A stretch of DNA of 59,324 nt from Psammoneis japonica (GCA_008632985.1 QPGO01000206.1:62001-121324); one strand, 5' to 3'. Positions 1 through 49,800 are shown, counted from the first letter of the stretch. Notes: generated from the letters alone by a model not told the origin. Numbers and translations: made by a program.

Positions 1-458
1 ACATGAGCCCACACCAACCATTGGTCAGTTCCCAGTGCTCGATCCAACACAGAAGCGCCGCCAGGGCTCAAAGCGGAAAAACATTTCAAACGGGGCACTT
101 TGCAATGCTCCAGAAGTGTGGACAGAGCCACCACGGCCACGTCGTCAAGCCGTGCATTATCGCCACTGTGTTCGCGCAGGTCGATCGTGACAATTGTTTT
201 GGGGGTCGCATCGCTGTGGACAATGTCCACCATGTCGCAGAGCACTTTCGTGGTTTCCTGGATTTGGTCCTGAGGGTTGTCTCCGAGGGCAATCCAAATG
301 GTGCCGAAACAACGCGCGTTTCTGAAGGCATCAAGAAACACTTCTTTGCCATCTGGACGACGCAACACCAAATCCCATTTGCTCGCGTCATCCTCTGTTT
401 GATGAATCTCAAAAGAGGGAGGATCGGGCCCGAAAAAGTGTCTCACCAAATGAGTCAT
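1..458 (-). pseudogene. Host-like ORF (152 codons, runs off window) inside a TpA-depleted island; function unknown
   Basis: ATG at 458 opens MTHLVRHFFGPDPPSFEIHQTEDDASKWDLVLRRPDGKEVFLDAFRNARCFG... with no stop to position 1 (absent from the ORF track because it has no stop). No Tyr codons; one TpA in 1-485. Confidence 0.45.
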
Positions 459-819
459 GTTTGCAAAGTGACGGAACTGAAGCAGTAACAACTGGGGGAA
501 CGACGACGGTCTAAAGTGAACGACTAACTTCAAACTGTATGTCGATAGCTTCGAAGGTACAGCACAGGGCGCCGCCGTAATGTTACCGGTGCTACCGGGA
601 CTACCGGTAGGTGCAGCGCGCTGTGCTGCTGTCCGCTAGCTGAAGATTTTTGATGAACGCTGGACAGACACGTCTTCTTTTGCAGCAGGCCAGCGCGCTG
701 GCTGGAGACTTCCCAGTCTTCTTCCGTACCACTTACAGACCTCCCAGAAGGGAGTGGAGATCTCGAGACGCTTTACTTCCCCAATTCCATACCGGTACAT
801 CCAACAAACTTTCACCACC

Positions 820-3236: not shown

Positions 3237-3672
3237 TAGGTCTACAATTTAGAAATACTAGAATGTGTTGTCTGTCCTTTCTCTTACTCTCTAGAGTATG
3301 GTAGGTCGAAGCTAGCAAAGTCATCGTTTGACACTTAATCAACTCTTCCTACTTCTACTGTACTCCGATCCTCGCTGTTAATACCGTAAGCCGAGAAAGA
3401 GAGAGAGAGAGCGATAGAGCGAAGAAGATGCACAAGGATACCGGTAGGCCCTACTCTATAGCTAGAGAGTAGAGCTACCGTAGAGTAGAAGTAATAGAGT
3501 GAGTGAGTCGTCGTCGTCAAGCGGGCAACAGGCAACAGCGGCCAGACAGCGCAGACGCACTATCGTCGACGCGCGTCGGGCTTGCGTTGAACTCAGAACG
3601 ATGCACGATCGATGCGCAATCGATGCCGTAGGACCCCCTCTAGCTAGGAGTAGATGAGTGATTATCAGGACG

Positions 3673-4815: not shown

Positions 4816-4984
4816 GCACTTTGCTTTTTTCATCATAACACTTGAAATGCGTTCCATCGACTCTCATCTGTGATGCATCAGTTTCGCAGCCCAGAAGTCG
4901 AAGTGAAGCAAGTCACATGATTGCTCGCGGTCTATCTTAGAATACCCCTATTCTCCTTTCGTCTATTTTCCTACCTGCTTTTAA

Positions 4985-5527
4985 CTACGTCGATGCCCCG
5001 AGAGCTTCCGTCAGGGATTCAAAACCGTGTTCTAACGAGTTTTCTGCGTTCTGACGAAGCGAGCCTTCTTTGAAGCATCGAAGGCAGACAGGGTAACGAG
5101 ACCTAGCTTCATGGTAGTCCAAGACGACCCGAAAAGCATTTGCATAAGCTTGAACCGCCACGCGACGAATTGCATCACTTGTATCCGTTGCTTCCGATAT
5201 CTTCAACTTGACAACGCGGGATGCTTTGTAGGCAGCAGATGCTCTGTCAGCTGGATGGGAATGAGGGACGCCGAAACAAGCATCAATGACGTTTCCATCG
5301 GTCAAGGCGACAAACGACACGGTCAGTGCATCGTCACTTATGTCAAACTCAGATGTAGACTGCGTCTTCTTGCGCAGCCCCGCTGCGCCACCTGTAAGTA
5401 GAATAAGATATCCCTGCGCAACTTCGGGTCTTATTTCCAAAACCTCGTCTGTGTCATACAGCACGAAAGGTAGAGAATTCGCCTGCGTCGTCGTGGCGAG
5501 TGGGCGTTTGCTTGCGGTTATACCCAT
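4985..5527 (-). CDS. Hypothetical protein, possible N-myristoylation
   Basis: 180-aa ATG ORF with protein-like composition; N-terminus MGITASK fits MGxxxS. Confidence 0.6.
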   Translation of the reverse strand: MGITASKRPLATTTQANSLPFVLYDTDEVLEIRPEVAQGYLILLTGGAAGLRKKTQSTSEFDISDDALTVSFVALTDGNVIDACFGVPHSHPADRASAAYKASRVVKLKISEATDTSDAIRRVAVQAYANAFRVVLDYHEARSRYPVCLRCFKEGSLRQNAENSLEHGFESLTEALGAST

Positions 5528-5888
5528 GCTTCCTTGTGATTATTCCTAGAAGAGCAGATCTTGTCCAAGTCGCCTGATATAACACTCGTGTCCTCTTTGA
5601 TCTTGGGTCGTGACAGGCAGTGAAGAGGAGCCAGAGCCTCTTCCGTTCCAGTGAGAAAAGAGCGATATCGCGGTAGCGATGATGCCGCGATTGAATTCTT
5701 CCCTTGTCGTGAGATTCGAAATTTTGGCGAATGCTGGCGTGAAATTTACTTATTTAGACTTTAATACCTAAAAACAAAATAATTACAACGATAAAGAAAT
5801 TGTTTATCTCTACGTCCGAGGAGTATATAAAATCGCACCCAAGTTCGGGGGGAATGGGGCCATACCGGTAATCAAGGTTGCGTTGATA

Positions 5889-6183
5889 CTACGAATTGCA
5901 AGACAATTGCGCGATTCACGTGCCCGAAGGGTGATTGTTGAAATTCGAGCTTCGCGCACGTAGAGCCTGTAGAAAATGTACCAGCCAGCCCGAAGCTCCG
6001 ATTTTCGTAGATCACGTAGGAGAGTACCACAAGGTCATTTGATGAAATGACTGGGACCAAAATGAAAATTTTGATACCACATCATACGTAGAATTGACAT
6101 CTGCGCGAAGGGAGAATGTTGCTTCGGGCAACGATATTCCACCTTCGAGCACGTGAATCGCGCAATTGTCTTGCAATTTGTAG
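5889..6183. mobile_element. MITE, Tc1/mariner-like
   Basis: ~43-bp terminal inverted repeats (CTACGAATTGCAAGACAATTGCGCGATTCACGTGCCCGAAGG ... CCTTCGAGCACGTGAATCGCGCAATTGTCTTGCAATTTGTAG), flanked by TA at 5887-5888 and 6184-6185; no coding capacity. Confidence 0.8.
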
Positions 6184-6260
6184 TAATGCAAAGTGAGTCG
6201 AATGGAATTCATGACTACCGTATTTTTTTATTGCAATAGAAGCAAGTCTTGAGCCTCAGA

Positions 6261-7763
6261 ATGTCATATTTTTTGCAATTATGTGCCACCAACAATCCTC
6301 AAGATGCGGGCTCGCCAACATCACGGTTGTCTTTCGAACGAGAAGATGGAAAAAAGGCTGCATTTTTTGTTGACGCCAAGGGGTTGGAGATTGAAAAGCC
6401 TGCACACTTGGTGATTCAATGTAGTGGTAAATTCGTCGGTGACCAGCAAGAAAAGGTTATCTCGTTTGTTCTTGGTGGTTTGGAGCTAATCAGTAACTCA
6501 CGAAACGTGGAAGTCTACACATCTGATGAAGACGGGAAAGAAACGTACATGAAAACATGTCGTGGCGTTGTCGTTGAGGATATAGAGCAAGAAAAAGACG
6601 AGGAGTGGTACAAGACTGTTATTGTGTGTAACGGGGGACCTCAAACAACATCAAGGTGCCACCTCAAACTGTTGAGTTTAAGACCAGCCAAGAGCAATCT
6701 AGCGAAGCTGCGAACGATCAAACTCAAGGGTAGAATACCCGAGGGTTCTGACGACGAAGAAAAAGCCTTCCCAGCAAATACTGACGGAATTTCACTCACA
6801 GATACTGCTCAGTCGTCTCCTTTGGTTGCAGCTGGAGGGATTAAACAACCGCCGCATCAGAATCAACAGCCACTGGGCCTCTCTCAGGAGGACGTTGGAT
6901 CTGCCATGGCGGCCGTTTCAATGATGGTTCGAACTACAGAAGATCGCCTTGGCCAAAAGTTCCAATCAGGGATCAAAAATATAGAAACTTTGGTAGGACA
7001 AGGTTTCTTGGGTGTCAATCAATCGATTGCGACGCTTGGCTCGATGGTAATATCTCAACGCCAGCAACTTGAGCAACACGAAGCACTGCTCACCGAGCAG
7101 AAACAGACAATCGCTGCGCAGAACGAGCTACTGGCGAAAATGGAGGAAAATCAACTCGTTCTGATTAACGCCGTCAAGGCTTTGCAAGATCGATTGGACG
7201 AGACTAGTGCAGGAGTGCGAACGCAGGAGCAAGGCAGTGAATCGACATGTAGCAACGGTGTTGAGAACGGCCACGTTTCGGAAAGTGGGAAGGAGCTCTC
7301 GCCTTCGACTTCTGCTACTACTGAGGTCGTCACCAATTCGACCAGAATCGTTGATGTTGTTGGAAGTCTCCCGTGCACTGACGATGTGGAAGACAAAGTA
7401 TGTGAATCGCCAATAACAAGCAATGCAGTTCAGTATTACATGTTTTATGAGGATGGAAATGAGACAACAGAATATGACTGTGAGGAATGTGCAACTTGTT
7501 CATTATATGACGCCGAAAGAACTGAAGAAGCAGAATGCGAGACGGATATACGCGATACTGAAGAGGAGAAATCAAGTGTAGGCTCTCCTTCTTGTGACGA
7601 GGTCGAATCCCACGTTAGCAACGACAACAATAGAGGGGAAAGTGACGAGACAGCAAGAACGAACGCCTCAACGAACATTGCCAAACCAAAGGAAATCAAC
7701 GAACGAGTAGGGATGGAAAGTACTGACTCGAACGAGTGTCTCGAGCAAAGGCAAGCAAGGTGA
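6261..7763 (+). CDS. Hypothetical protein; N-terminus resembles PAAT/C10orf88, then coiled coil and acidic tail
   Basis: 500-codon ORF; LELISNSRNVEVY...YMKTCRG recalls the PAAT SSARNMEVY...TSRG motif; Q/E heptads. Confidence 0.65.
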   Translation: MSYFLQLCATNNPQDAGSPTSRLSFEREDGKKAAFFVDAKGLEIEKPAHLVIQCSGKFVGDQQEKVISFVLGGLELISNSRNVEVYTSDEDGKETYMKTCRGVVVEDIEQEKDEEWYKTVIVCNGGPQTTSRCHLKLLSLRPAKSNLAKLRTIKLKGRIPEGSDDEEKAFPANTDGISLTDTAQSSPLVAAGGIKQPPHQNQQPLGLSQEDVGSAMAAVSMMVRTTEDRLGQKFQSGIKNIETLVGQGFLGVNQSIATLGSMVISQRQQLEQHEALLTEQKQTIAAQNELLAKMEENQLVLINAVKALQDRLDETSAGVRTQEQGSESTCSNGVENGHVSESGKELSPSTSATTEVVTNSTRIVDVVGSLPCTDDVEDKVCESPITSNAVQYYMFYEDGNETTEYDCEECATCSLYDAERTEEAECETDIRDTEEEKSSVGSPSCDEVESHVSNDNNRGESDETARTNASTNIAKPKEINERVGMESTDSNECLEQRQAR

Positions 7764-8170
7764 CATTGGAACCCCCCCCCCCCCCCCTTTAGGCTGCTCA
7801 GATTTGTATGCGTGTTCATTTTTCAACGCTGCGCATGAAACCCGCACGAGCGAGCGTATCGCCTAGAGTAAGTAAAATAATGTAGAAGCCCGTCTCCATT
7901 GTCACGTGGAAATGAAACAGCGACCTGACCAGAAGTTTCGAATTATTCGTTCGCTGAAAGTTGGCGGCATGTCGCTCGATCATACGGACAGTGCAATGTC
8001 GTGATGCTGCCCAACGAAAAGCCAAGAGATAATGCGATTGGAATTCGAAAGACATTGACAAAGTCAACACACACCACACCACAAAGCGTCAAAGCACCTG
8101 ATGAAATTAGTTAACGTAAATTTCTTTGGAAGTTTGTTTCGAGTCTGATGCTTCAACAATCGTCTTCTTA

Positions 8171-9207
8171 CAATCCCAGAATCTGAATGCAGAAATCGTT
8201 GAACACAAGGCAAGCCTTGATTTGGTCATCACAATGTTTGCAGTTGCACCTTGCTCTTCTCAAACAGGGAGTTGTTGTCCACTGTTTGGTTAAATGCCAT
8301 TCCACCAGACTTGCCGCATTCTCAGGAGGTGCCATGCTCTTCCACCAGGTCAGCCAGCTCCACTTGGCCAGACTTGTCCTCTCCAGCCAGCTGACTCTCT
8401 GGCTGCTTGTTTTGCAGGTGGGGGCTGAGACAATGAAAGTGTGTGGCTGACAGACAGTTCCTGCATGTGTCTGATGCCATCGAGACTCACCGAGGTTGCG
8501 ATGTGGCTGCCCATTGGCAAAAAATGCCGGCTGATGCACGACAAGCCAACAGCACGCTGATGATGCCAGCGACTTTTGCCAGTGGCAAGCACAGTCATTG
8601 CATCTTGATTAAAACATGTGCTTTGTCTGTGTTCAGGTGGCCAGTCTGCTTGTGGCCAGAGCTCTCTGCAAGATTGCTTTGAGGCCAAAGCTCTTGCAGA
8701 AAAGGCAGGCGCTGCTCTTGAGCTGCGATCCAGAGTGGGTGTCCGCACAAGATCTTGCCAACATCATGCAATCACTTGAGACTGATGAATTGATCTCTCT
8801 TTCTTTGATGAGTGTGCAGAGGATCTTTTTGCACACTCAGCACTCTGAAGGATTTGCAGAAAGGGCCCTCTTTTCTTGCTTTTTTTGAGAAAATCTTTTG
8901 ACTCAAGTGTCTCACACAGTGTGACCATTGGTTCAGAAAAAATGCACATCACAAATCTTTGTCAAGGATCATGGATCATTAAATCTGACAGATGAAAGCA
9001 TTGTGCCAGTTCCAACTGAGGAGTTTGGCACAATGTGATGAGTGGGAAAATGCCCTTGGCACAAGGCGGCAGGCGCAGAGAAGCTTTTCTTCTTGAGCCT
9101 TCTTTCTTGTCTCATCAAGAACACAACACTGCCAGCAGGCATTTGAAGGGCACCAACAGGTCATTTACTTCTGGCTGCTTCCATGTGCCAGCCCCTGGAG
9201 AGATGCT
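8171..9207. other. TpA-depleted degenerate island (TE or gene relic, unclassified)
   Basis: 4 TpA in ~1040 bp (3 are TTAA); overlapping Tyr-free, C/H/W-rich ORFs on both strands. Confidence 0.6.
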
Positions 9208-27811: not shown

Positions 27812-30590
27812 AAAATCACACTGGCACCAAGCTCAAAGCAGGCAAGCACTCATCAGTTGTGTGCATGCAATGGACAGAAAACCAATCAAGAGTCAATGAG
27901 TGTGCAAGCACCGCCCCAAATCCTGAGTGCCCCCCCCCGCGAAGAGGAATGGATCCTCCGCTCCACTGCCCCCAATGGCAATCGCAGTCCTGTTGGCTGA
28001 TCATTGCAATTGCATCCCAAATCCATTTTGAAAACACTCGGTGCCAATGACAGATCCCACCTCAGACCAATCTCTTTCTCATCAATCAAAGGCCACCGCC
28101 CCACCCAGCACACTGACCACAGCAATGCCAAGATGTTGACAGCAGCCGCAAAAGATGAAAAAGCCACAATCTTGCATTTTGACTCAATGACATCGTGCAT
28201 CCAAACATCACAGGTTCTTCATGGCCACTCTCCAGGCAGTGTGCCAGGCCTTGCTGATTCCAGGTTGACGAGGAATTTCCAAACGCACCCGCCGCTGCAG
28301 TGCGACCCGCGCAGTCCATGGCAACAGATCTGTCGAGTGTTTGAACACGCAGTTCAGTCATTGCATTTCCCATTTGACCCCCCTTGCTTGGACAAGGAAA
28401 ATTGCATCGGTGCACAAAAATGGCACCAATGCCTTGAACTTTGTTCGCAGCAGGGTCTTGCGATCAACTTCCGACAACTGCTCCAGAATCGCTCAAATGA
28501 ATGGCGGGGCCAGCAAACATGCGCTTGCTTTGCAACCGTCAAGTGCCTGGCCATGTTGCTTCTGTGATTTTGACTTTTGGTGGCATTCAAATGTTTCCAC
28601 ATGCCCGCCACATCCTTGGCCACGAACACATTTTCTGTGTGAAACTGCAAGCTTTTGAGTGCATCGTCCCGCGCGACAACAACGTGCTTTGTTCAATGAA
28701 AAGACCTTTTCCAGCTGCTCCCAACATGACATTGTGTCATTGCCAAATGCCAAAATGTTGCCCTTTCTGTTCAATGCTGTGCCGATCAGTTTTTAACTTG
28801 TTGCCGTGCCTGACAGTTGCTGAGCCAATTGCTCCCACGACTTGCATGCTGTGGCATTCTCAAGGGAACAGCCCACAAGCAGTCGATGCACCCAAACAAG
28901 GCCACCAGAACTGTTAAAAAAAAACAATCTTCATCTCTCTTCCACTTTCATGCCAAAGCTGCTTCTTTTCACCATCCAGCAAAGCTTTCAGAGTTGTCAA
29001 GACTTTGCTCTTGAAAAACATTCGCGGCACGTTGGAGAATTTTGCAAGACTGGCCTTGCAACTGCATTTGTTGCCTTGCACAATTCTGTCTGCCACCACT
29101 TTTCTTGTTTTCTTCACTGCAGACATGGGTGCTTTGCTTTTGACAAGGTCAATCAAAGTTTTGGTGGCCCAGTGAGAGAACTCCATGGTGACAAGAGACA
29201 ACTTCGGCAATGGATTCTGAGTTGGTTCTCAAAAACTGATTCACGGCTCTGGTTGCAAAAGACAGCGAGCCAACAATGTTGCACCACTTGGCTGCCCTGA
29301 TGGCCATGAGCACTTCATTTCAAGACTTGGACAAGTCTGTCTCTGAGTCAAATTGTTGAATGTCATGAATCCAACGCAGTCACCTCCGGAGCAGCTGGTT
29401 TTGATGCCGTGTGACAGCTGGGAGGAGAACAAAAAAGAAAACTCTGACTTTTCGTGATCTCTCCCGAAAGCAATTGTTGTGTGACAAATGTCTGGTGTGC
29501 AGCCACCAGAAAGGTCCCATTCTCCAAAATCTTGATTTTAAAGGCTCAAGCATGCCCAAACATTGCAAACATCATGGTCTTGACAGAACTTTGCATGATT
29601 TGAAAAAATTGGCGGGGTGAGATTCTTGTCAGATTTTCAACAAACAAATGAAGCGCAAACCATTTTCACTGCCAAAGATGCACAGGATCAACTGCAGCTC
29701 AGCAAAGGCTTTCTGCATGCCATGCTTCATTTTCCAACACCTTGATTGAAGGCCAAAGCTTCATCAAACATGCTGGCCATTGATGATTGTTGCGACGTTG
29801 GACGTGTCTCCAGTCCGCTCTCACCACTGTTGAAGGTCTCGGCTGAAAAATTGGAGCTGGGGGCAAACAATGCAGACATGTCTGTCACCAACAAGGTGTT
29901 CCAAGTTGAAACATGACTTCATTTGTCATTGGTGAGTGTCTCATTGGCGAAGCCAATGAGCGGCAGCAGAGTTCAGCGTGACGCATTCCAGCTCTGGGTG
30001 GGACCTCGCGCTGCTGCACTGTGACATCAACAGCTTTTTGGATCGCGTCACATGTCACACATGTGCATTTCTGCGTGCCACATTCTACAAAATTGTTTCA
30101 TGCTCCCTGTTTTGCGAAGCCAAAGGCTTTCCATTTTCAACATTTGCAAGAATGAAAATGCACTGGGCACACTCTTCAATGTCTGAAGAGTGCACCCGGG
30201 CAAACTGTCGATGATGCACTGCAAGCATGGAGGAGGAGATGCATTTGCAAATTGCCTCTTTTTCTGTTGGCAATCATTTGTGCTTTCATTGCAGCACAAA
30301 TTTGCTGTGGAGCTCGTGCGCAGAATTCTCTGCGGGCCCAATGTCACACGGAGCCCCACCTGGGGCTGGAGCCCGTCACGTGCAAGCATGTCTTTTCCGG
30401 GTTCATTTCCAGACTGCTGGGAATCGCTTCTCTGGATTTCCAGCACGACGCATTTTCCAGGTTTCCAGTGAGCCAAAGCTTCCGGGCTTCTTGGGAGACG
30501 CAGCCTCCGGGTTTCTGGGGAGACGCTGTTTCCGGGCTTTCAATGGGGCACAGCTTCTGGGTTTCCAGCACAGCCTCACTTCCAGGTTTT
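27812..30590. mobile_element. TpA-erased unclassified element between the EMC3 copies
   Basis: 4 TpA in ~2.8 kb; many Tyr-free ORFs; shares ~70 bp of homology with 36772-36841, so it is repetitive. Confidence 0.55.
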
Positions 30591-33176: not shown

Positions 33177-35174
33177 ATGCCCATAGATATGTTTTCACGT
33201 TGCTTTGCTACGACACTATGGTTGGTGCTTCCAATGATAACAAGGGTTAATTCTTTCTTTGGTGTTGTGCGTCAGCGCAGTTCTCCCTCTGCTTTGTTGC
33301 CGTTCCCTCCGACGAAAAGTGCAAAGAGAGGCTTTTTGTCGGTCGTTAGCCATGACAGCGAGGTTTCCGACGATGGAGGGGAAAATGCTATTTTTGAAAG
33401 AAACCTCCCTCTGATTCAATCATTTCGTCAGGTATCTCGTTCTATTGAAACGCATCACAACAACTCGTCGACGGTGCAGAAGCGGCTTGTACGAAAAGGG
33501 CTAGAGTATGACTTGTATCGGCGTTCTAAACGGTTCCAGGAAGAGGATATTATCACATCGTCATTTGATCGCGTTCCAGGGTGCGTTGCAACTGTGCACA
33601 TCCAAACTACTCTGGTTCCAATTGGAAACACAGAGAATACCAATGATGCCACTAGATACAGGGTTTGGTTGAACGGTACTTCAGATGCCATGTTGAGTCG
33701 AGGACTTTTGGCATGTTTTTCTGAGGCCGTGTCGGGACTGGACGTTTCCGCAAACGATGTGCTGCAGTTGGAACCGGGATTGGTTTCCAACCAACTTCAT
33801 TTGGATCATGTGCTAAGTCGAGGACGGAATGATGGTCTTGCTAGTATGATGCGCACGGTGCAGCAACAAATTCGAGCCCTTCTGCGTCACAATGATGAGC
33901 AAACTAAAGTCAATTCCACTGACGTAATATCAACTGCAAGCATTGGCAGTCAAAACGCTTCTAACCAAAAGACCGTAGCTATGTTGCTATCGGGTGGTGT
34001 CGACTCTTCCGTAGCGCTCAATCTGCTCAAACGAGATGGATTTAACGTAACTGCATTTTATCTCAAGATTTGGTTGGAAGATGAATTGGCGCACTTAGGT
34101 CAATGTCCGTGGGAAGATGACTATAACATATGCAAACAAGTGTGTCAACAAGCTGGTGTGCCTCTAGAAACCATCTCGCTACAAGAAGAGTACAAGTGCC
34201 GTGTGATTAGCTATACCGTAAATGAAGCAAAACGTGGGAGGACGCCGAATCCGGATATTATGTGCAATTCCCGTGTTAAGTTTGGCTGTTTCTACGATGC
34301 CATTGAGGCAAGAAACTTTGACTACGTAGCATCGGGCCACTATGCGCAACTTGTGTCAGACGACGAGGGAAACAAACCGATTCGGCGCCTATTTCGTGCA
34401 CCGGACCCAATAAAGGATCAGAGCTACTTCTTGTGCGCTCTGACGCAAAAGCAGTTGCAACGTGTCTTGTTTCCGATTGGGCATTTGCAGAAATCTCAAG
34501 TCCGAGAGCTAGCGCAAACCCTAGCCTTGCCAAATCGGCAAAGACCAGACTCTCAAGGCCTTTGCTTCTTAGGCAAGGTCAAGTTCGATGAATTCCTTGC
34601 AGCATACTTGGGNNNNNNNNNNNNNNNNNNNNNNNNNNNNNNNNNNNNNNNNNNNNNNNNNNNNNNNNNNNNNNNNNNNNNNNNNNNNNNNNNNNNNNNN
34701 NNNNNNNNNNNNNNNNNNNNNNNNNNNNNNNNNNNNNNNNNNNNNNNNNNNNNNNNNNNNNNNNNNNNNNNNNNNNNNNNNNNNNNNNNNNNNNNNNNNN
34801 NNNNNNNNNNNNNNNNNNNNNNNNNNNNNNNNNNNNNNNNNNNNNNNNNNNNNNNNNNNNNNNNNNNNNNNNNNNNNNNNNNNNNGTACTTTCAACGACG
34901 AACAACAGCGAACACCGGAACTGTTTTGGTAGGTAGATTCCATTTTAAGATACGACATGGTCCAAAATTGGTAGAGGGGACTCTTACATTGGATAAGAAT
35001 GAAAACGGCGGTGGTGTTCAACTAGATGAAAAAGACGGGGGCCTCGCTCCTGGCCAGTTTGTCGTATTTTACGCCTTAAATGGCAGTGAATGTTTGGGTG
35101 GTGGTGTTATTAGTGAACGGCACTGGACAAAGTTCCTCTTGGACCAAGACTCTGTCCATGAAAGCTTTTCGTGA
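33177..35174 (+). CDS. mnmA: SufE-like domain fused to tRNA 2-thiouridylase MnmA, predicted plastid-targeted; spans an N gap
   Basis: SufE motifs RVPGCVATV, SDAMLSRGL, LSRGRNDGL; MnmA motifs LSGGVDSS, TPNPDIMCN, SGHYA, KDQSYFL, DSQGLCFLG, APGQFVVFY; signal peptide ending VNS-FF. Confidence 0.9.
   Translation: MPIDMFSRCFATTLWLVLPMITRVNSFFGVVRQRSSPSALLPFPPTKSAKRGFLSVVSHDSEVSDDGGENAIFERNLPLIQSFRQVSRSIETHHNNSSTVQKRLVRKGLEYDLYRRSKRFQEEDIITSSFDRVPGCVATVHIQTTLVPIGNTENTNDATRYRVWLNGTSDAMLSRGLLACFSEAVSGLDVSANDVLQLEPGLVSNQLHLDHVLSRGRNDGLASMMRTVQQQIRALLRHNDEQTKVNSTDVISTASIGSQNASNQKTVAMLLSGGVDSSVALNLLKRDGFNVTAFYLKIWLEDELAHLGQCPWEDDYNICKQVCQQAGVPLETISLQEEYKCRVISYTVNEAKRGRTPNPDIMCNSRVKFGCFYDAIEARNFDYVASGHYAQLVSDDEGNKPIRRLFRAPDPIKDQSYFLCALTQKQLQRVLFPIGHLQKSQVRELAQTLALPNRQRPDSQGLCFLGKVKFDEFLAAYLXXXXXXXXXXXXXXXXXXXXXXXXXXXXXXXXXXXXXXXXXXXXXXXXXXXXXXXXXXXXXXXXXXXXXXXXXXXXXXXXXXXXXXXXXXXXYFQRRTTANTGTVLVGRFHFKIRHGPKLVEGTLTLDKNENGGGVQLDEKDGGLAPGQFVVFYALNGSECLGGGVISERHWTKFLLDQDSVHESFS
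34613..34885. other. Assembly gap (273 N)
   Basis: Run of N. Confidence 0.99.
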
Positions 35175-35737: not shown

Positions 35738-36166
35738 CTAGTCCGAATCTTCCTTGGCAGCAGAAGTATCGGAGGTATCACCTCCTTGTAATTCTTTCTT
35801 GATTTCTTTCGCTTGCATCTCTCCCTCCTCTAATCCCTTTTGGAATTCCTTGGGGACTTCCTTGAGCTCGCCGGCAATCTTGCCAGCGTCCTTTCCGAGT
35901 TCGGCAAGTTTCTGGGGGCCAAGCAAAAAGGCCGCGGCAACAAGAATGATAGCCACTTCAGGTGCACCCAAGCCAAAGAGTCCCATTGTTTGCACTTGTG
36001 CCACCGACTTTCTCTGATTGACAAGTGCAGTTGGACGATCGAAGTCTGATGCTGGACCGAAGCTTCGAGACGCCACAAAGGGCGCGGATGCTCGTGGGTA
36101 CTGAATCGGCACGAAAGCGGCAGCTCCAAGTAACATACTCAGTAAAGCGGCAATGATTCCCTTCAT
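35738..36166 (-). CDS. tatA: Plastid twin-arginine translocase TatA/B (Tha4/Hcf106-like)
   Basis: [34 protein letters not shown]; signal peptide with AAA-FVP. Confidence 0.85.
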
Positions 36167-37399
36167 GACTGCAATGTTGGCGTCACAAGTTCACTCAAGA
36201 ATGCAGCTAAGGTGTCGTGTCAACATGAACTGATGTTGTCACACCACACGGAGCGATCGCTTGTACCTTATACAGTATCTTGCTTCCCGCTTTCATCACA
36301 TTGATTGATGTCTTGACTTCTTGACACGTGGTGCGGATTGGATTGTGTGAAAGATACTTCAACCCGATGACGTGCAGACTGCCTGTGTGCCTGCATGGCG
36401 GGCTGCCATGCATGAAAACATGACCCACTGCGTACGACGCGAAATGACCCACACTGACCGTGCGTTGGGTCACCTTTCTTCTGAGCCGTTGAACATTTTG
36501 AACGCGCTCATGCAAGACTAAGAGCCACGGCCGTTTGCTTGCCCCATTGCTCTCCTCATTCCTCCAAAGAGCAACCAAGAGCAACAGCCACAAGCGGGCA
36601 GTTTTGGTGCTCCCACCTCTGCCGCCCTCTGGCCCTGCCGCTCCAGCTTGGGTTTGGGAGCGAGGCCTGCACACCCGCCAGCAAAGTCGCTCCAGTCTGA
36701 CAGTGGAGCCATGGCATCTCTCTGGTTTAAATGTTCCCAAAATTTCATCAAACAAAGCGTCTGGGGTTTTTGCAAAACAGCGAGTCTGGAACAATTTTTT
36801 GGAAGATCACATGCAGAAATCCACGTGCAAAACATGTGACGGATGACAAAAAAAGATTGTGCTGCACATCAGCACCACAAGCTCCCACCTGGGGCTGGAG
36901 TGAATCTGTCATTTGCAGCCAGCAGCCACTTGACTCTTCCACTGCACTGACAAAGCATCCAAAATGTGTGCAAAGCAGCACACCTGCACAAAGCAGCATC
37001 AGCAAGAGCTCAGAGTGGCGCTGACAAAGTGCCAGAGTTGGTGACAACAGCCAAGCCCCCAGGGCCAGCAGCCCCCTGTTTAAAAGAGGAAAAGTGTGAG
37101 CAACAACAAGCAGGCAAGCCAGGGGAAGCAGGGAGAGAAAAAGGTTTGGGCAGGAAGAAGAAAAACAAAACGAGAGACAGAGAGAAGAGAGAGCAGCTCT
37201 CTCTGGGGCGGCACCTGGGAAAAGTGTGCGGCAGCAAGAGTGACAAGCTCAAAAGCTCCCTGCAAACCAGTGACAGCAGGTGACATGTGCGCCAGTGAGA
37301 AAGAGTGAGCAAAGATCTCAGAGAGATCATCTTGTCCATCTAAAAAGAGCCTGACCATCATCCACACACAATCTGCCCATGCACCCTGTGCAGCAGAGC

Positions 37400-38900
37400 A
37401 GGCTGACAACCTCCCCTGATCCAACATGTTGAGAAACCTGATGATGCAGATCACAAATCACAAAGAAAGGGAAAACAATCTCATGCAAAGGGATGCAAAA
37501 CAAACCGGATGACTCTGGTGGGAAGGAGTCGGACATCACAAAATCACAAAAGGCAGCTCAACAGATGCCAGCAACAACAAATCAGCAAAAGTGCCCCATC
37601 ATTTGATGGGCATGACGGACATGGAGTGTCAATCTGAGAGCCTTGGTGAGGCCATTGCTTGGATTGACAATGCCAGGGATGTGTCGTGTGACAATGTGGC
37701 CGGCATCCTTTTCCAGCCCTGAAGAGCAAGCCACTGGACATCAATGTGGCGAGAGCGCTCGGTCGGGGTGCAATTGTTGATGATCATGATGGCCAATTTG
37801 TCGTCAATGTGCAATGGATTGGTGAGTCCTGAGGGGGGAACTGAGCTCTTGAAGAACTGAGTGGAGACACAAAACCAACTTGGCAGTGGCGCCGGCAGCA
37901 TGGAATTCCGCCTCCATTGAGCTGGCGCAGTCACTGTCTGTCTGTGTCTTGCATTGACATGCAACAGCACCAGCCAAAACACAAGCATGCCCAGTGGTCA
38001 AGTGATGGTTGCATGTCCAGTGGTCAAGTGATGGTTGTGAAGGTCATTTCCACAAGCTGCACCCAAAAAAGCCTGCAGTTGAGACAGAGAATCCGGAGTC
38101 AGAAAAGGAGGCAATGAAGCACATCAGGAAAAAATCATTCAAAAGGGTGCGGCAGCAAGGTGTCATCCTTGGATGGCTTGTGACAATTGATGTCCCAGCA
38201 CTTTGCATGACAAGATGCTTGGCAACAACCCCCTTTAAAGCCTGGCAGTGAACAGGTGCTGGGTGTGACGCGAACTTGGAGAGTGTGGTGACAGCATGGC
38301 CAATGTTGAGGCGAGAAATGACACAGGCACACAGCAGCTCCCCAAGGAGAGTTCAATGTCCAAAACCCTGAGCTTCTGCCAAATCCTGACACTTGGGTGC
38401 ACCTTCCACAGGACCTGTGTCCAAGTGCAAGGTGCCAATTGGGAAAGAGAGTCAACGGGAACAGGGGCAACCATGAAATCTGAGTCAGATTCATCATCAG
38501 CAGGTTGCAACCAACCATGCAATCGCAGCACTTGGTCAATGCATCAATGACAAGCAGCTGACACTGAGTCATTGCACTGGCATGTGCCCACACCGTTGAA
38601 CACTGCACAGAGCCCAAACACTTTTAAGGAGACAGAATCCTCACCAGGTGGTTGCAGTGATGAGCCAATTGCATCGAAAGTCTTGAAAGCATGCGGGATC
38701 CCACAGGGCACACAATGGCAAAATCATCAACCTGGCGCAAAAGGAGGATCTGTTTGCCATCGCATGTGCCCAAGCAGGTGCACTTGTCATGGGCGGTGTT
38801 CCAAAAAAGCAACTTGAGATTCATCAAGATGGGGTTGAGATCTGCCTCTCACTTCTTCTCTGCTGGTGCTCGTGTTGTCACAGCCCCAGTGCTTGGGGAG
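37400..38900 (-). mobile_element. Ty1/copia (CoDi-like) pol relic: RT and RNase H, PPT and start of 3' LTR
   Basis: LLRQVDDFAI (RT), LLGELL..IGHAVTTLSKF, SSMEAEF and TERSRHIDVQW (RNase H); minus-strand purine tract AGGGGAGG followed by TGTCAG at 37408. Confidence 0.85.
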
Positions 38901-39499
38901 TCTTTCATGACATCATCCTCATTGCCCTTCGGTGTTCTGTCAGGTTGTGGCCTTGTGCTGTGCCACTGAACTCTGCACCATGCTTTCTGTTTCGATTCAT
39001 TTGTTTTGTGAGCTGATCAAGCAAGCCTCATCTTTGTTCCTGAAACAAATTTTTTTCTTGCTTTCCTGGCATTTTTCACGATCATAGAAACATGCCAGAT
39101 TTCTGTGTGTGCATGACCAGAAATGTTTTCACCAGGCAAAACCATGGTGTCTCCCAACCTTGCAAAGGCTGCTCCCACATTTGTTGCAGGGATCCACTGT
39201 GAATTCTGAGCACATGTGATGACACCACATCTCCACGCGTGCAGCTGCTTGACCCAAGAAGAACATTGTGGACTTGCTCCAAGACTGTCTTGTCACTCAA
39301 GCATTTCCACCTTGCATGATGGATCCTGCAGACATGCAATCCATCAAAGCGATTGTAGATCAAGGAAGCTCCATTTTACGTTGTGGACCCTGACAGGCCT
39401 CATGTGATTCATTTGACACCAGAAGCTCTGTCATCCACGATCAAGCTGAACCTTCAGAATCATGATCAGTCGTTGTTCATTGTCACATCCACGCAACAC

Positions 39500-40900
39500 A
39501 TTCATGCTGATCCTGATGTGATGTGGAATTGCAGGGGCTGGAAAGAGTTTTCTCTTGCTCCCTGCCAGCAGAAGACACTGTCTGCACCCTCGTCCTGACT
39601 GGCACAGGAGCTGCAACTGTTGGTGTGAATGATTTAGCAGCAGCCCTCAATGAGTTTGCATGGAGCCATGCTCCACCTTCAGCTGCTGCTGTCAAAACAT
39701 CAGGAGGTGCCACATCATCCATGACATCGAAGCACCTCTTCAACCCCATCACTCTGCCCATGGATGTGCGTGAATGCTGTGACCATGAGGAACACAGTGC
39801 AGTTGCTCTGAAGAGTTCACTCGTCTCTCATTGTGACCATGGATTCCATCATCACATTGATGCCTCAGACCATGTCATTCTCAATGATGGCATGCACTTT
39901 GTCATGAGCTCCACCCCCAATCAAAAGATGTTGTTTGGGGAACCACCAATGTGTCATGACAACTCTCCTGCTGGGATGCGGGCGTGGCATCAAAATTTCC
40001 AACGTCACTCTTTCGACTCTGGGGATGCTGCATCCATCCCATGTGGTGTTTCACCAAGGATCATGGTGGTGAGAAGGGCTTCATGATCGGAAATGTCAAA
40101 GACGATGACTCACTCTGATGCATGTGTGTTCATTGCAAAGAAGCCCAGAGTTCTCTCCACAAGATTCCATCCAAAGCAGATGTGTTTCCCAAGAACAGCA
40201 GGCATCATTGCATTGTCGCCTTGTGCTGTGGCAATGGACACAAGGCCCTCAAGCAGATTCCACACAAGAGTCATCCAGCATTTGACCATGAAGCAGCTGG
40301 ATCAGTGGATTTGCACCCTGCTCAAGGCAACCCATCATTGACGGACTGCCACATTGTTTTCAAAGATTTCCACAGTTGCGTGCTCACATCTTTGATGTGC
40401 ACTCCACGTTGAATGATCCACGAGAGATGACTGTCTTCATCAAGAACACCAAACACTCCAAGTTCTTGTCCCATGCCATGAGGGATGAACAGAAGTCCCT
40501 GGCTGTGCTCAAGAAATGCATCGACACTCAGATTGTTGAAACCCTGTCTGACTTCCTTCATCAACCTGACAGTCCTTTGGTCACCACCCATGCGAGCCCT
40601 CGCACCTCACACCATGAATGGGGCCAGAATCAGGGAGCAAGACCCTCAATGCACAGCTTTTGATGTCAATGCTTTGTCATCCTGGACGTGCCTCCTGTTG
40701 AGGATGATTCTGATGGGGCACCCAATGATGCAGATGATTCACTGGATGACACCTTTGACACCCTTTGTGACGAATTAGCTGGCATGGATGTGCCACCTGT
40801 GGATGAGGATCGCCTCCTCCATCATGCACACTCGGCTTCTGCACACAGAAAGAATGGCACGTTGGTTGCCAGTTGGACTCATCACATTGTGGAGGAGATC
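39500..40900 (+). mobile_element. Copia gag-like relic, opposite orientation to the pol fragment
   Basis: Fragments MRAWHQNFQRHS, IHPMWCFTKDHGGEKGF and GNGHKALKQI..SHPAF resemble diatom copia Gag; broken by frameshifts. Confidence 0.55.
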
Positions 40901-40958
40901 GGCTGCTGTCTGCTGTGTGTCCCGCTTGCATTCTCTGTCGCCCGTCTGTGTGTCTCAA

Positions 40959-41695
40959 CTGCAGAGCGGGTTTGAAAGCCACCGCAGTCGTCAAGGGCAG
41001 TGGAGCATCTTCCAAGGTCACGAAATCCTTTTGCGTTGCCTCAACTCTGGCGGAATCCATCGTGAATGCGACGGAAGTGCCCACTCTTGGGGTCATGGAT
41101 CCATTTTCTGACTTTTGTGGTTGGACAAACACGGTTTCTGTTGTTTGGGTGCACACCGGACAGTGGAGTGTGTTGGCCACACCAACAACAGGAGGGCGAA
41201 GGCACCAACTTTCACACTGTGGTAATTTCTCTGTCAGTCTGCCAGAGGAGGGCAGGGATTTCATGATGATTCACAATGGCACTGCCATGGAGATCAAAAA
41301 GCAACACAAGACATCTGCACCAAGGCATCCAGGGGCGAGAAACGGAAAGAGAAACACGAGACTGCTCCTGCGTCTTCCGAGAGTGCCAAAAAAATGAAGG
41401 AAGAAATCCAAGGAATCATCTGCCAAGCACCAAGGCACTTGCATCATCCCCGTCTCATTGCACCAAGATGAGCAGCCCCAAGAAGGACAAGAGCGGAAAG
41501 ACTCCCGTGTGCACGCCGAGATCGTTCCATCCCAATCTTCCGGCCATTTCCAAAGAGAGGATCAAGAAGGGAAAAAAGACAAAAGACACCAGAACAAACA
41601 AACATGCCCAAGACAGAAAGGCACATTGACATGGCACAGCAAACATTTCTGCACATTGTTTCATCAAAAGCTGTTGGATGATTGTCGGTTGCCAT
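40959..41695 (-). pseudogene. Host-like multi-pass membrane gene relic, TpA-erased
   Basis: MATDNHPTAFDETM..MCLSVLGMFVCSGVFCLFSLL..SLSALVLLGAAHLG..WQMIPWISSFIF..LVFLFPFLAPG; 2 TGA stops, one frameshift, no Tyr. Confidence 0.4.
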
Positions 41696-43581
41696 CGTGC
41701 ACTTCGTGGCAGGGCAGTGGGATTCTTTCTTCGCTCTTTCGAAAGCATCACACAAGCTAGAAATGCTGCTCTCTCTGCTGCAGCTCTCTAGAAAGTCTTT
41801 TGAGCTACAGTGCTGTAGGGTGTCACCAAGCACAACAAGTTAATCCTTCGGCGTGCTAGGCCCACAGCACCGGCAGCTGTGATGATGGACTCGCACTCTA
41901 TGCAATCCATCCATGCATCAGACACCCTGACACAAGCACACGCAGATTTATTTGATTCTTCATCCCGCTGCTTTGGTCCCAATCCAATTAGGCGTGGCAG
42001 GCGCGCTCCTGATGAGCGTACAGACTATCACCGCGGTGCTATCGCGGGGAATTTGATCAAATCTCGCACCGACGATGGTGATGATTGCGACGCTAAGAAA
42101 GTTATCTAAACCTTCGATTCTGCGAGAACGTATTTGGCATATAATCAATTAGCATCTGTTGGATAGGTATCTAAATACGTTCTTCACGATTTTGATTTTG
42201 TGGCGAGCTATTGATAAACATACCGATTCAGTCGTTCGTGACGCCATGTCACGTGCCGAGTCTTCATCAACCACTCATTCGCCGGATTTTCGACACCCGC
42301 TGAGAGTAAAAGCCGGCGGATATATAAAGGCAAGTAATATAGAATCGAAATGGTGTTGTCATTGTGCCAAAGTCTCACTACTTGTTGTCTCACTCAACTG
42401 TCATGCAGACGCAGCCAATTTTCACAGTGTCAATCGTCGTGTGAGCTCATCGACGAATCCAATGTCGTAGTCCCGTCGTCAAACCCGTTTTAGCAACGCC
42501 AATGACAAGAGGAATATTTTTCAAGACTTTAATAAAGCAACTGCAATGCGATCAGCCAGTGTTTTTGAGTGGGAGAGGGTGGGGCGTGGGGCGGATTTTG
42601 GAGTGAAAATGCAGAGTGAAGTTGGCGTACTGTTTAAAAGAAGCAGTCAAACAACGTTGAAAAAGTTACCTATTGATGATACTCTCCTATAGAAGAATAA
42701 AGTTAGGTAATGGAAGTGCCCCCTTGCTTGTATATTCGCTAGATTGTTGGCAGAGACGCAATTGTCAATTCTGAAAATGGAAAAGTGTGGCTTGTAAATG
42801 TGTTTTCATGGATTGCTTCGTCCATTTAAAGCATGAAATAGGTCAAATAGAGTTGTCACAACGTCAATAATGAATTTTAAAGAAGACTATTGCCATAAAA
42901 TGTGCTTTGTGTTGATGTCATCGGCTATCTGTATCTCTTTGTCGAGAAAGGGTTCATCGACCCCGAGTCACGTGTCTTGAATCCCGCATGACCCGCTCGA
43001 CTCGAAATTTTTTGAAGAACTAGCTAGACTTTGACCCCGGCTAGAGCCACAAAATACCCGAGGTATGAGCATTATCGGTCTCCTACTCTTTAAACTAATG
43101 TCTTGCGAGAATGTAACAGGTATGTATTGTTCATGGTGTTGGGTATTTGGAAATGGAACTAACTTTTCGCGGGGCGCCTTTATTGCACGTGAAAGTACGA
43201 GGGACGATTTTTGGTGATATCTCTATTACTAACCAAACCTAACACTTGCGACCCCAAAACTTGTCGGGAACTTCTTATTAGAATAATATTAGTCGGCTGG
43301 AGTTGCATTTTGGTAAAAAATGGGGGGTTTGTGATTACACGTGGAAGCATGACGTTGGGCCCCATAGCTGCTGATGCGGTAACGTTGAAAGTCTCCAAAA
43401 TCAAGTCTCCGACAACCGGCAACTGCTCCCAATGGCGTTGTCACTTTGTCACCATTGCTCTCTCGGTTTGCGTTCCGTCGCTCTTTAAAGGGCCTCCCAC
43501 GCTTTCTTTGAGTTATTTCAGCGTTTTTCGTTTTTTGGTTAACTAAAGTAGCGTCCTTCACGCTCACGCTCTTGTTGTAAC

Positions 43582-48296: not shown

Positions 48297-49800
48297 TCAC
48301 AATGTTGTCCATCTCAACCATGGCTGGAGTCATCCTGAAGGTCATTCTTGCTCTTTGTTTTTGGCAATGCAGAGCAAAGCTGAGAACTGCCGCTCAAAAA
48401 ATCAAGATGACAGAGTGCGGGTGAGATGGCCCTTTCTCATTCAAAATTTGGGCGCACGCCATGACTCTGTTGCGCAAGCTGTGAGCGTTCAAACAGCTTG
48501 CAACAGTCCTTGCTCTCATTGTTGTGGCACCAGTGGTGCACACCAAAAGAGCTCTCCACACATGTGACCATTGCGGGGTGCAACAAGGCAGAGCCAACCA
48601 CAATCAATTGTGGTGCCCAGTGCGCAGTGGAGAGCATCGCTTCTGATGCTTGTTTGGCATCTGCTGCATGTGGAGGTGAAGAGCTCCACCAGTCACATCC
48701 CAAGAGCTTTTGCAATGGATGCACAAGGTGTCCAGCTGCACTGACCAAGGCTGTTGCTGTTGCTTCAAGATGCAGACTCAGTTTGTGCCCCTCTGGGCAG
48801 TGTGATGACATCACCTTGTCTGTTGGTTGTTGTCACAAGAGAAAGAGCATGACATCGGCAACTCTTTGTCACCCCAGCCATCCAGCAGTTCCTCTCAGCC
48901 ATCTCTTCTTGTTTTGCACCATTGTTGTTGTTGACATGTTCACACTCAAACCAAATGGCTGTGCTGTTTGAAGAAATGCAGAGATGGCCACACAAGCAAT
49001 GCCAAGGTTAGAAAGAAATGTTGACATTTGTGTGGGGGTTAATTTCAAAAATTTGAGGGACTGTGCTGCATTGCTGCTTTGCAGTCGAATTGTCAACAGC
49101 TCGATTGTCCTCATAGCCCCTGTCTTCAATTTTGTCCTGGTCTGCAGCCTTGAGAGCAACTTGTTGTGATCTTCTTCATCAGGAATGTTGTTGTTGCTGC
49201 TGATGGTGGACTGCACACCACTTGGAAATTCTAGGTTGATGATGCCAGCATCGTCAACCCTGCCAAATGACAACCTGCTGCTTTTGGGTAACACAGCTCA
49301 TTTGCACATGTTGGTGCAATTTTGAGCCACTCAATGCTGGCAGCAGCAATGACAACAACAGCAGCAGCAGTGGCAACAACAGCACTCTCGGCATTTTGCA
49401 AGTGAACACCAACACACATGCACACACTCCATGCATGAAAACATGGTGCAGTTGACAAGCCACTCCAAACCAAACACAAACAAACAAAACCATTGAGAAT
49501 TTGACAGAAATGCTGTGGAGAACACACCCTTGTGATGCATGAGCATCCAGGACACCAACCAAATGCACTGCAGTTAACATTCGAGCAGTGGTGTGGGGCG
49601 CATCATGCTGGCACCACAGCAAAGTCGAGCGAGCAGCGACACCACAGAATCAAATTCGCATGTTGCATTGATGACAGCACATTTATGATTCAGTGCCCTC
49701 AAGCAAACATGACGTTTTTGTTTAACAATGCGATTTGTTCAAAAATGATTGGCGGCAAATCCAGGGCAAAGCTGTCAATGCGAATGACCTGGGTTCCAAA
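48297..49800. other. TpA-depleted island with host-gene-like remnants on the minus strand
   Basis: ~8 TpA in 1.5 kb; Tyr-free ORF fragments (e.g. MLSTAHWAPQLIVVGSALL). Confidence 0.55.

Follow-up and report, generated by a model that had tools for sequence, protein, structure and literature searches.

Introduction

The closest described relative of the system treated here is found in the chlorarachniophyte Bigelowiella natans, where integrated viral DNA undergoes hypermutation targeted to TpA (Mettrop et al., bioRxiv 10.64898/2026.01.13.699255). According to the main text of this preprint, the mutation rate of two integrated viral regions in mutation-accumulation lines is ~1000-fold that of the remaining genome, and 230 of the 231 mutations in the viral regions are A>G or T>C, all of these on TpA and on both strands. 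The long-term footprint is described as TpA depletion together with CpA+TpG enrichment in clusters of 1-kb windows, and reverse transcriptase and DDE endonuclease domains are over-represented among coding sequences low in TpA. An ADAT2-like DNA adenine deaminase is put forward by the authors as the agent, and an ADAT2 homologue is reported; the main text does not mention diatoms, CpG, 3' context or TTAA. Here, we analyzed a stretch of 59,324 nucleotides from the diatom Psammoneis japonica (GCA_008632985.1, QPGO01000206.1:62001-121324; hereafter the window, from whose first letter all positions are counted), in which five discrete islands have lost nearly all of their TpA (TA). One of them, island 4, holds decayed fragments of Ty1/copia retrotransposons.

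As far as the main text of the preprint describes the B. natans regions, the P. japonica islands resemble them in that nearly every change is A>G or T>C, and that the changes fall only on TpA, yield TpG or CpA depending on the strand and are confined to discrete regions. The two cases differ in host and content: B. natans is a rhizarian with giant-virus and virophage inserts, whereas P. japonica is a stramenopile in which long terminal repeat (LTR) retrotransposon relics and a DUF285 pseudogene are affected. Erasure is also deeper, with an observed/expected (o/e) TA ratio of 0.02-0.08 in the islands versus 0.45 in the nucleocytoplasmic large DNA virus (NCLDV) region of B. natans. Moreover, that main text has no counterpart to the CpG decay that coincides with TA loss here, to the dependence on 3' context or to the survival of TTAA.

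Ascomycete repeat-induced point mutation (RIP) is likewise irreversible, dinucleotide-specific, restricted to transitions, active on both strands and near-saturating in transposons, with sharp edges and loss of coding capacity. However, RIP changes C to T, mainly at CpA, and thus creates TpA, whereas in the islands A:T is replaced by G:C, TpA is destroyed and CpA/TpG are enriched. RIP is triggered by duplication and needs a RID/DNMT4-type protein; in a second sequence, the public run X1 described below, much of island 4 has the depth of a single copy. Decay of 5-methylcytosine (5mC) at CpG also depletes CpG with a gain of TG/CA, as in the islands, but it cannot remove TA. Finally, the editing of animal retroelements, by APOBEC on cDNA or by ADAR on double-stranded RNA, has in common with the islands that mobile elements are hypermutated and that edited copies persist as fossils. 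Those enzymes act on a single strand with strand bias, and APOBEC converts C to U, unlike the changes seen here, which affect both strands equally and favour a 3' pyrimidine.

An earlier note on this DNA, made from the sequence alone, proposed a targeted A:T>G:C mutator acting at TpA and knew of no description of such a process in diatoms. Our literature searches found no report of TpA-erasing hypermutation in diatoms either, but the phenomenon itself was published in 2026 in B. natans. A term look-up in the accessible text of Maumus 2009, Filloramo 2021, Hoguin 2023 and a 2025 preprint on diatom transposable elements returned no TpA, dinucleotide bias or hypermutation; in the text of Hoguin 2023 that was covered, RIP is only mentioned in the discussion of DNMT4. 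Measured against the main text of the 2026 preprint, the process is therefore not categorically new; P. japonica extends it to a second, distant lineage and to retrotransposon relics, in which the same signature has reached saturation and follows a context rule.

Results

Five islands have lost nearly all of their TpA

The five TpA counts made by hand in the earlier note proved exact on recount, and their expectations were calculated from base composition (Table 1). The o/e values of the islands are far lower than that of the comparison stretch 2221-2520 in an HSP90/TRAP1-like gene (16 TpA, o/e 0.61), as the note had claimed; the window as a whole has a TpA o/e of 0.50. Island edges are sharp at the 300-bp resolution used, and the longest run free of TA, 1141 bp at 39636-40775, lies in island 4. 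The TG/CA richness that the note had read by eye was borne out, with o/e values of 1.35-1.94 for TG and CA. Islands 2-5 (1.65-1.94) exceed the enrichment cut-off of 1.52 used in a B. natans-type test, and island 1 (CA 1.50, TG 1.35) falls under it. In island 4, the TA-depleted and TG/CA-enriched state runs over five consecutive kilobases. Island open reading frames (ORFs) had been described as nearly devoid of Tyr, and all 13 ORFs of at least 140 aa that lie wholly within islands indeed lack this residue. The observed TpA depletion is thus confirmed as real.

A mass balance was drawn up for the 11,036 island dinucleotides, with the density of each dinucleotide in the non-island part of the window as reference. 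Pooled over the islands, TA occurs 28 times versus 442 expected, CG 261 versus 636 and TG+CA 2383 versus 1608, so that the combined loss of TA and CG (~789) equals the gain of TG and CA (~775). The same balance holds island by island, for example in island 4 (loss ~389, gain ~370). Only TA and CG are depleted; the remaining dinucleotides stand at 0.85-1.23 of background, and AA is at its normal level (ratio 1.06). The CpG depletion, which affects four of the five islands (o/e 0.23-0.50), had been overlooked in the earlier note. By this balance, CpG decay covers about half of the gain of TG/CA and none of the TA loss. The note's contention that neither RIP nor 5mC decay explains the TA loss therefore holds: TpA is erased, CpA/TpG are raised, and decay removes no TA.

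Tyrosine codons in island 4 point to conversion of TA into TG or CA

Among 67 residue pairs with Tyr in five copia homologues, island 4 has Cys in 21, His in 12, Phe in 10 and Tyr in none. A column was scored as conserved Tyr when at least 10 relatives were present and at least 60% of them had Tyr, and 14 columns qualified. In these, the window reads TGY five times, CAY five times, TTY twice, GTG and CAA once each and TAY never (Y, pyrimidine; R, purine). The relatives read TAY in 450 of 530 cases in the same columns, and their 56 TGY/CAY codons come mostly from a few copies. Both Tyr>Cys, an A>G change on the coding strand, and Tyr>His, a T>C change, are present; therefore, both strands have been hit. 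Additionally, 5 of the 17 island stops that align to homologues lie at Arg positions, which fits CGA>TGA and thus CpG decay. These codon alignments indicate that the TA loss is mutational and that its direction is from TA to TG or CA.

Related copia copies carry the same changes part-way

Relatives of island 4 were taken from metagenome contigs, using an alignment of 18 RNase H-region fragments as the query; the 80 loci analyzed (numbered with the prefix L) are the best of 224 confirmed. Their median TA o/e is 0.66 and 73 of the 80 stand at 0.5 or above, and the closest copia relatives (L016, L012, L005, L041 and L008) range from 0.46 to 0.72. The earlier note had named a family free of TpA throughout as evidence against a mutator; judged from these loci, the copia clade is not ancestrally TA-poor. 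Six loci contain a 1-kb window with TA o/e <0.3. A microbial-mat metagenome contig, L026, includes an island-like segment at 1000-2757, comprising 1.7 kb with a TA o/e of 0.12-0.17 and a CG o/e of 0.16-0.56.

Alignments were made of two nucleotide families (36 and 7 loci, at least 84% identity), with the majority consensus used to polarise the changes. This comparison of copies with their family consensus, which the earlier note had recommended and which was made here on the metagenome families, revealed an excess of TA>TG/CA changes on both strands in six copies. TA was lost at 42 of 107 consensus TA sites in L078 (21 to TG, 21 to CA), 27 of 69 in L067 (13 and 14), 32 of 66 in L057 (19 and 13), 14 of 32 in L026 (10 and 4), 31 of 119 in L064 (20 and 11) and 11 of 49 in L011 (2 and 9), and the reverse change from TG/CA to TA amounts to 0-4% in these six hypermutated copies. 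Transitions outnumber transversions at their consensus TA sites (34:0, 26:1, 39:3, 14:2, 12:1 and 29:7). Per base, the transition rate at TA versus other A/T sites is 0.206 versus 0.011 in L067 (Fisher p 7e-15) and 0.233 versus 0.011 in L026 (p 6e-10), and the sibling copies L019, L020, L046, L053 and L056 have no TA transition excess.

At sites 1922, 2175 and 2643 of family 1 and sites 2236 and 2879 of family 2, one copy has TG and another has CA; the ancestor was therefore TA (or CG), and the polarity does not depend on the consensus only. L067 and L078 have 12 identical hits in common and then diverge at further TA sites, which argues for successive rounds of mutation. In L057:1-1431, a run of 28 consensus TA sites has been kept intact up to ~960, and nearly all later ones are converted; either the switch marks a true domain edge inside the element, or the metagenome contig is chimeric. 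The motif HIDIQ[Y/H]FAIQ in short RNase H fragments of public assemblies (alignment A1) has either Tyr or His after HIDIQ, and this alternation may reflect TA>CA conversion in some of the source copies.

The changes follow a context rule and are separable from CpG decay

The context tables omit seven strongly divergent copies (L033, L035, L036, L045, L065, L071 and L075). In the six hypermutated copies, the A>G rate is 0.186 after T (154 of 826), 0.050 after C, 0.027 after A and 0.027 after G; sorted by the 3' base, it is 0.24 in TAC, 0.215 in TAT, 0.134 in TAG and 0.130 in TAA. The 28 TA that remain in the islands include 13 in TTAA, 18 in YTAR and none in RTAY, and in the background RTAY makes up 31% and TTAA 3.9% of TA. 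TTAA is retained in the islands at 0.75 (13 versus 17.2 expected); retention over the 15 remaining NTAN contexts ranges from 0 to 0.18 (binomial p 1e-11). In TA-depleted 500-bp metagenome windows, CTAG (0.78), TTAG (0.73) and TTAA (0.66) are best kept, and ATAC (0.11) and TTAC (0.15) are worst kept. A per-strand rule, T-A-Y > T-A-G >> T-A-A, accounts for all of these context data; under it, TTAA is the one site whose context is poor on either strand.

The TA process is separable from CpG decay, though both occur in four islands, because TA is lost without CpG loss in island 1 (Table 1), L067 (transition rates: TA 0.206, CG 0.041) and L026 (TA 0.233, CG 0.042), and CpG is lost without TA loss in L056 (TA 0.023, CG 0.117) and L053 (TA 0.014, CG 0.123). 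Over the 80 loci, the depletion of TA and that of CG are weakly correlated (Spearman 0.22, p 0.048), a value that we did not use as evidence.

A second sequence of island 4 is equally free of TpA

X1 is an Illumina-like public run, available as Logan contigs, whose type was guessed as DNA and which possibly comes from the same culture as the assembly. It contains 82% of the sampled words from 36000-42300; no RNA run was among the matches of the island, a negative that bears on expression in neither direction. The X1 contigs over island 4, at a depth of 54-64 (single copy), are ~99% identical to the window, a 2024-bp piece differing by 8 substitutions and 6 indels and a 1266-bp piece by 6 and 4. 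Because these contigs are equally TA-free, the TpA loss is not an artefact of this single assembly, though X1 is not fully independent. The note had pointed to TA at island sites in reads as a sign of such an artefact, and the X1 contigs are as free of TA there as the window is.

Window and X1 have 17 single-depth differences, of which 8 are CpG/TpG/CpA changes and one is TG versus TA at 36713. At one Tyr codon, which relatives read as TAC/TAT in 29 of 37 cases, the two sequences carry different products of TAY (Table 1). This pair and the TG/TA difference at 36713 are hints that the TpA process has probably been active recently.

Some sub-stretches of island 4 are very deep in X1, namely 36633-37054, 38743-39164 and 40009-40641 (up to 4398). 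In the first of these, the summed depth is 1755-4398 versus ~58-64 for single copy. Of the 536 X1 contigs placed here, 344 are only 90-95% alike, and the high depth points to many related repeats in the genome, possibly derived from LTRs. To the right of island 4, the flank at 41908-42300 has normal TA and is multicopy in X1 (depth ~1180-1510). Five of its eight variable sites have TA in the window and TG/CA in other copies; at sites 42026 and 42210 the TG/CA form is in the majority, leaving their polarity ambiguous.

Contents and surroundings of the islands

The copia assignment of island 4 is based on translated searches. Five polyproteins bearing RVT_2 (P0025, P0020, P0007, P0024 and P0013) match 37588-38848 on the minus strand by tblastn, with E down to 1e-37, and P0025 is a reverse transcriptase of the diatom Nitzschia inconspicua. 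By tblastx, 37493-38896 (minus strand) matches metagenome copia loci with E down to 8e-66, and the long matches to the island 4 RNase H ORF are polyproteins with RVT_2, gag_pre-integrase and SH3_retrovirus domains. The segment matched by the gag-region relic, L005:5263-5922, falls within the ORF 4369-6531, directly upstream of the gag_pre-integrase domain of the second copia element of that locus. L005 carries tandem copia elements at 2-3475 and 4369-7787, the second of which opens with a 720-aa ORF without a Pfam family, followed by gag_pre-integrase. By these matches, island 4 is not one element but is made up of two or more copia fragments with opposing orientations.

Neither blastn nor a repeat finder detected an LTR pair in island 4, and no integrase was detected; a purine/pyrimidine-coded local alignment for LTRs of island 4 scored 132, against a shuffle mean of 132.7. 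When the decayed RNase H-like ORF was compared with 1.84 billion representatives, 25 weak matches were obtained (best E 2e-8), none of them a close unmutated family member.

DUF285 is the sole Pfam family above cut-off among 109 island ORFs (search at E <=0.05). Weak Pfam matches of island ORFs to SAM_3, DUF6367, MGC-24 and GFO were disregarded, all being below cut-off. Islands 1, 2, 3 and 5 gave no tblastx match at E 1e-6 to the 80 copia loci, and the 11 ORFs of the TA-normal flank 41756-43551 matched no Pfam family.

The window is a gene-dense eukaryotic region with Pfam matches to HSP90, ankyrin, a Deg-type protease, a DEAD-box helicase, FtsJ, EMC3, TatA, MON1, Ctr, Sec24 and eIF3e. The closest relatives of the helicase are from the diatoms Asterionellopsis, Cylindrotheca, Nitzschia, Mayamaea and Pseudo-nitzschia (61-71% identity). 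An exact look-up of the TatA-like neighbour gave no match in the protein collection. The HSP90/TRAP1-like gene is present in two ORFs, 640-2154 and 2217-3233, which correspond to positions 80-222 and then 223-503 of the HSP90 profile; presumably an intron or a frame change separates them. A scaffold gap of 273 N lies at 34613-34885, amid the genes upstream of island 4.

Table 1. TpA-erased islands of the window and the features recognized within them
Feature	Position	Strand	Description
Island 1	1..485		TpA 1 vs 27.1 expected, o/e 0.04; CG o/e 0.90 (CpG normal); cut by window edge
Island 2	8171..9207		TpA 4 vs 67.7 expected, o/e 0.06; CG o/e 0.23; no Pfam match
Island 3	27812..30590		TpA 4 vs 181.4 expected, o/e 0.02; CG o/e 0.50; TA-free run of 984 bp
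Island 4	36520..41755		TpA 11 vs 321.3 expected, o/e 0.03; CG o/e 0.34, TG 1.78, CA 1.68
Island 5	48297..49800		TpA 8 vs 102.4 expected, o/e 0.08; CG o/e 0.28; no Pfam match above cut-off
DUF285 (BspA-like repeat) pseudogene fragment	29730..29918	-	Island 3; PF03382, E 3.4e-8, 33.7 bits, cut-off 25; frame breaks
Repeat common to islands 4 and 3	36769..36902 and 29984-30118 (inverted)		blastn 70.8% over 137 bp; multicopy stretch
Ty1/copia reverse transcriptase-RNase H relic	37493..38896	-	Island 4; decayed, frameshifts and TGA stops; tblastn/tblastx
Tyr codon with two outcomes	38541..38543	-	Window TGC (Cys), X1 CAC (His): 38542 C>T, 38543 A>G; depth 64/64
Copia gag-region relic	39919..40579	+	Island 4; tblastx E 7e-35 to L005:5263-5922; also L055:210-749

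Discussion

We demonstrated that the changes in this system have a direction, that they are specific for one dinucleotide and for particular copies, that they affect both strands, and that they follow a context rule and are independent of CpG decay. Taken together, our data make it likely that the islands are dead insertions driven near saturation by a TpA-specific transition process, which acts on both strands within bounded domains. The A:T>G:C mutator at TpA that the earlier note had proposed is supported by the TGY/CAY codons at Tyr positions, the balance between TA+CG and TG+CA, the TA-normal relatives and the copy-specific transitions. In this model, dead insertions (copia fragments, the DUF285 pseudogene and further DNA) lie in a gene-dense diatom region. 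TA>TG or TA>CA transitions would act on both strands of the DNA in place, within sharply bounded domains, and would be laid over ordinary CpG>TpG/CpA decay. The outcome would be irreversible inactivation, in which Tyr codons become Cys or His codons and reading frames are scrambled.

Several observations weigh against this model. The family consensus was built on metagenome copies, and the six hypermutated copies were chosen after the rates had been inspected. Only one named member of the clade is a diatom. Islands 1, 2 and 5 gave neither a Pfam match above cut-off nor a match to the copia loci, and are foreign DNA or transposable elements only putatively. The multicopy flank at 41908-42300 keeps normal TA, so some repeats are not hit. 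The TGC/CAC pair at 38541-38543 could also have arisen via a CpG intermediate. Additionally, the multicopy stretches of island 4 have only three TG/CA alternations (36812/3, 37442/3 and 39067/8) among X1 sequences of at least 90% likeness, counted at a share of at least 10%; unmutated progenitors would drop under 90% likeness, which makes their absence uninformative. Given so few alternations, amplification after erasure is possible, and some TA-free sequence may have been multiplied in that state rather than mutated copy by copy.

With regard to the agent, we infer an enzyme and its targeting to silenced or foreign chromatin. Our preferred, though tentative, candidate is a TadA/ADAT2-like polynucleotide adenine deaminase that acts on DNA (A>I, read as G), because a 5' T is strictly required and TAC is the optimal context. 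The natural target of TadA/ADAT2-type tRNA adenosine-34 deaminases is an A after U, and the bacterial TadA site, U-A-C, resembles the most sensitive context here, TAC. Amphioxus ADAT2 is reportedly active on DNA; to our knowledge, action of the TadA/ADAT2 family on chromatin-bounded double-stranded DNA is not established.

The same targeted process might instead run on other chemistry, in which the T of TpA is oxidised or otherwise modified by a TET/JBP-type activity to 5-hydroxymethyluracil (5hmU) or 5-formyluracil (5fU) and mispairs with G, resulting in T>C. That adenine deamination and thymine modification are indistinguishable by sequence counts against our choice of agent: TA is palindromic, so that T>C on one strand is A>G on the other, and the T-A-Y preference reads equally as R-T-A on the thymine strand. 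In dinoflagellates, 5hmU is enriched at TpA. However, 5hmU pairs well with A, and near-saturation would need a strongly mutagenic derivative. Moreover, the B. natans authors favour A-deamination in their main text and report an ADAT2 homologue (bioRxiv 10.64898/2026.01.13.699255). We therefore regard thymine modification as rather unlikely, and it concerns the agent only.

We consider it highly improbable that TA erosion is a by-product of CpG deamination, wherein T:G mismatches in methylated DNA draw error-prone repair by a Pol-eta-like WA>WG polymerase, a candidate also raised in the earlier note. Pol eta favours A after T or A, and CpG decay is present in four of the five islands, as such a mechanism would have it. 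But AA>AG occurs at 0.027, the level of GA, versus 0.186 for TA, and AA stands at its background level in the islands (ratio 1.06); the candidate is disfavoured because AA is not hit. The loss of TA without CpG in island 1, L067 and L026, and the reverse in L056 and L053, also argue against it.

Slightly less credible still is editing at the level of RNA or cDNA, by an ADAR-like enzyme or by a deaminase on retrotransposon RNA or first-strand cDNA, with the changes fixed at integration so that elements arrived edited. Island 4 does contain retroelements, and ADAR prefers a 5' U; it also prefers a 3' G, and the preference seen here is for a 3' pyrimidine. Such editing predicts one outcome per copy, yet TG and CA are near-equal within single copies (21/21, 13/14 and 19/13), and both Tyr>Cys and Tyr>His are found on the coding strand. 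The DUF285 pseudogene is erased as well, and L067 and L078 imply successive rounds within the genome. In B. natans, according to the main text of the preprint, the mutations arise in place in resident DNA (bioRxiv 10.64898/2026.01.13.699255).

We give even less credence to an ancestral or foreign composition, by which the islands would descend from elements with little TA from the outset, without any mutator. Few TA-bearing variants are seen among sequences at least 90% like the multicopy parts of island 4, which would suit this explanation. It is largely refuted by the TA o/e of the closest copia relatives (0.46-0.72) and of the clade (median 0.66) and by the replacement of conserved Tyr codons with one-transition products in broken frames; the mass balance also fits conversion.

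Least likely of all is an assembly, base-calling or library artefact, for which no support was found (the window has one N gap and X1 differs by small indels) and against which stand the equally TA-free X1 contigs at ~99% identity, the same signature in independent short-read metagenome assemblies and the position of the islands between normal genes on a single contig. A UV photoproduct at TA and a general heterochromatic mutation bias were rejected, as none of our tests favours them and sharp edges and near-total specificity argue against them.

Returning to a TpA-specific process that acts on resident DNA, it is possible, though doubtful, that one active enzyme system, targeted to chromatin, is common to diatoms and chlorarachniophytes, deaminating adenine in T-A-B on both strands of double-stranded DNA and sparing TTAA. 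Such a "reverse RIP" would be old, extending across the stramenopile-alveolate-rhizarian (SAR) lineage or wider, independent of cytosine methylation and still active in this species. The context rule (T-A-Y > T-A-G >> T-A-A, with TTAA spared, both strands affected and no dependence on CpG decay) is both a biochemical prediction and a signature for genome scans. Diatoms are an ecologically dominant group, and in its genetically tractable members knock-outs could reveal the enzyme.

Erased elements defeat repeat and gene annotation, as only 1 of the 109 island ORFs exceeds a Pfam cut-off, and the divergence-based dating of transposon insertions used in diatom genome papers is biased in such regions. 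If the same process operates in diatoms and a chlorarachniophyte, it would be more than a peculiarity of a single alga: a means, widespread among eukaryotes, of disarming transposons and integrated viruses for good, with a chemistry opposite to that of fungal RIP. A system shared across the SAR lineage, if true, would constitute a mechanism of genome immunity and a natural DNA adenine editor.

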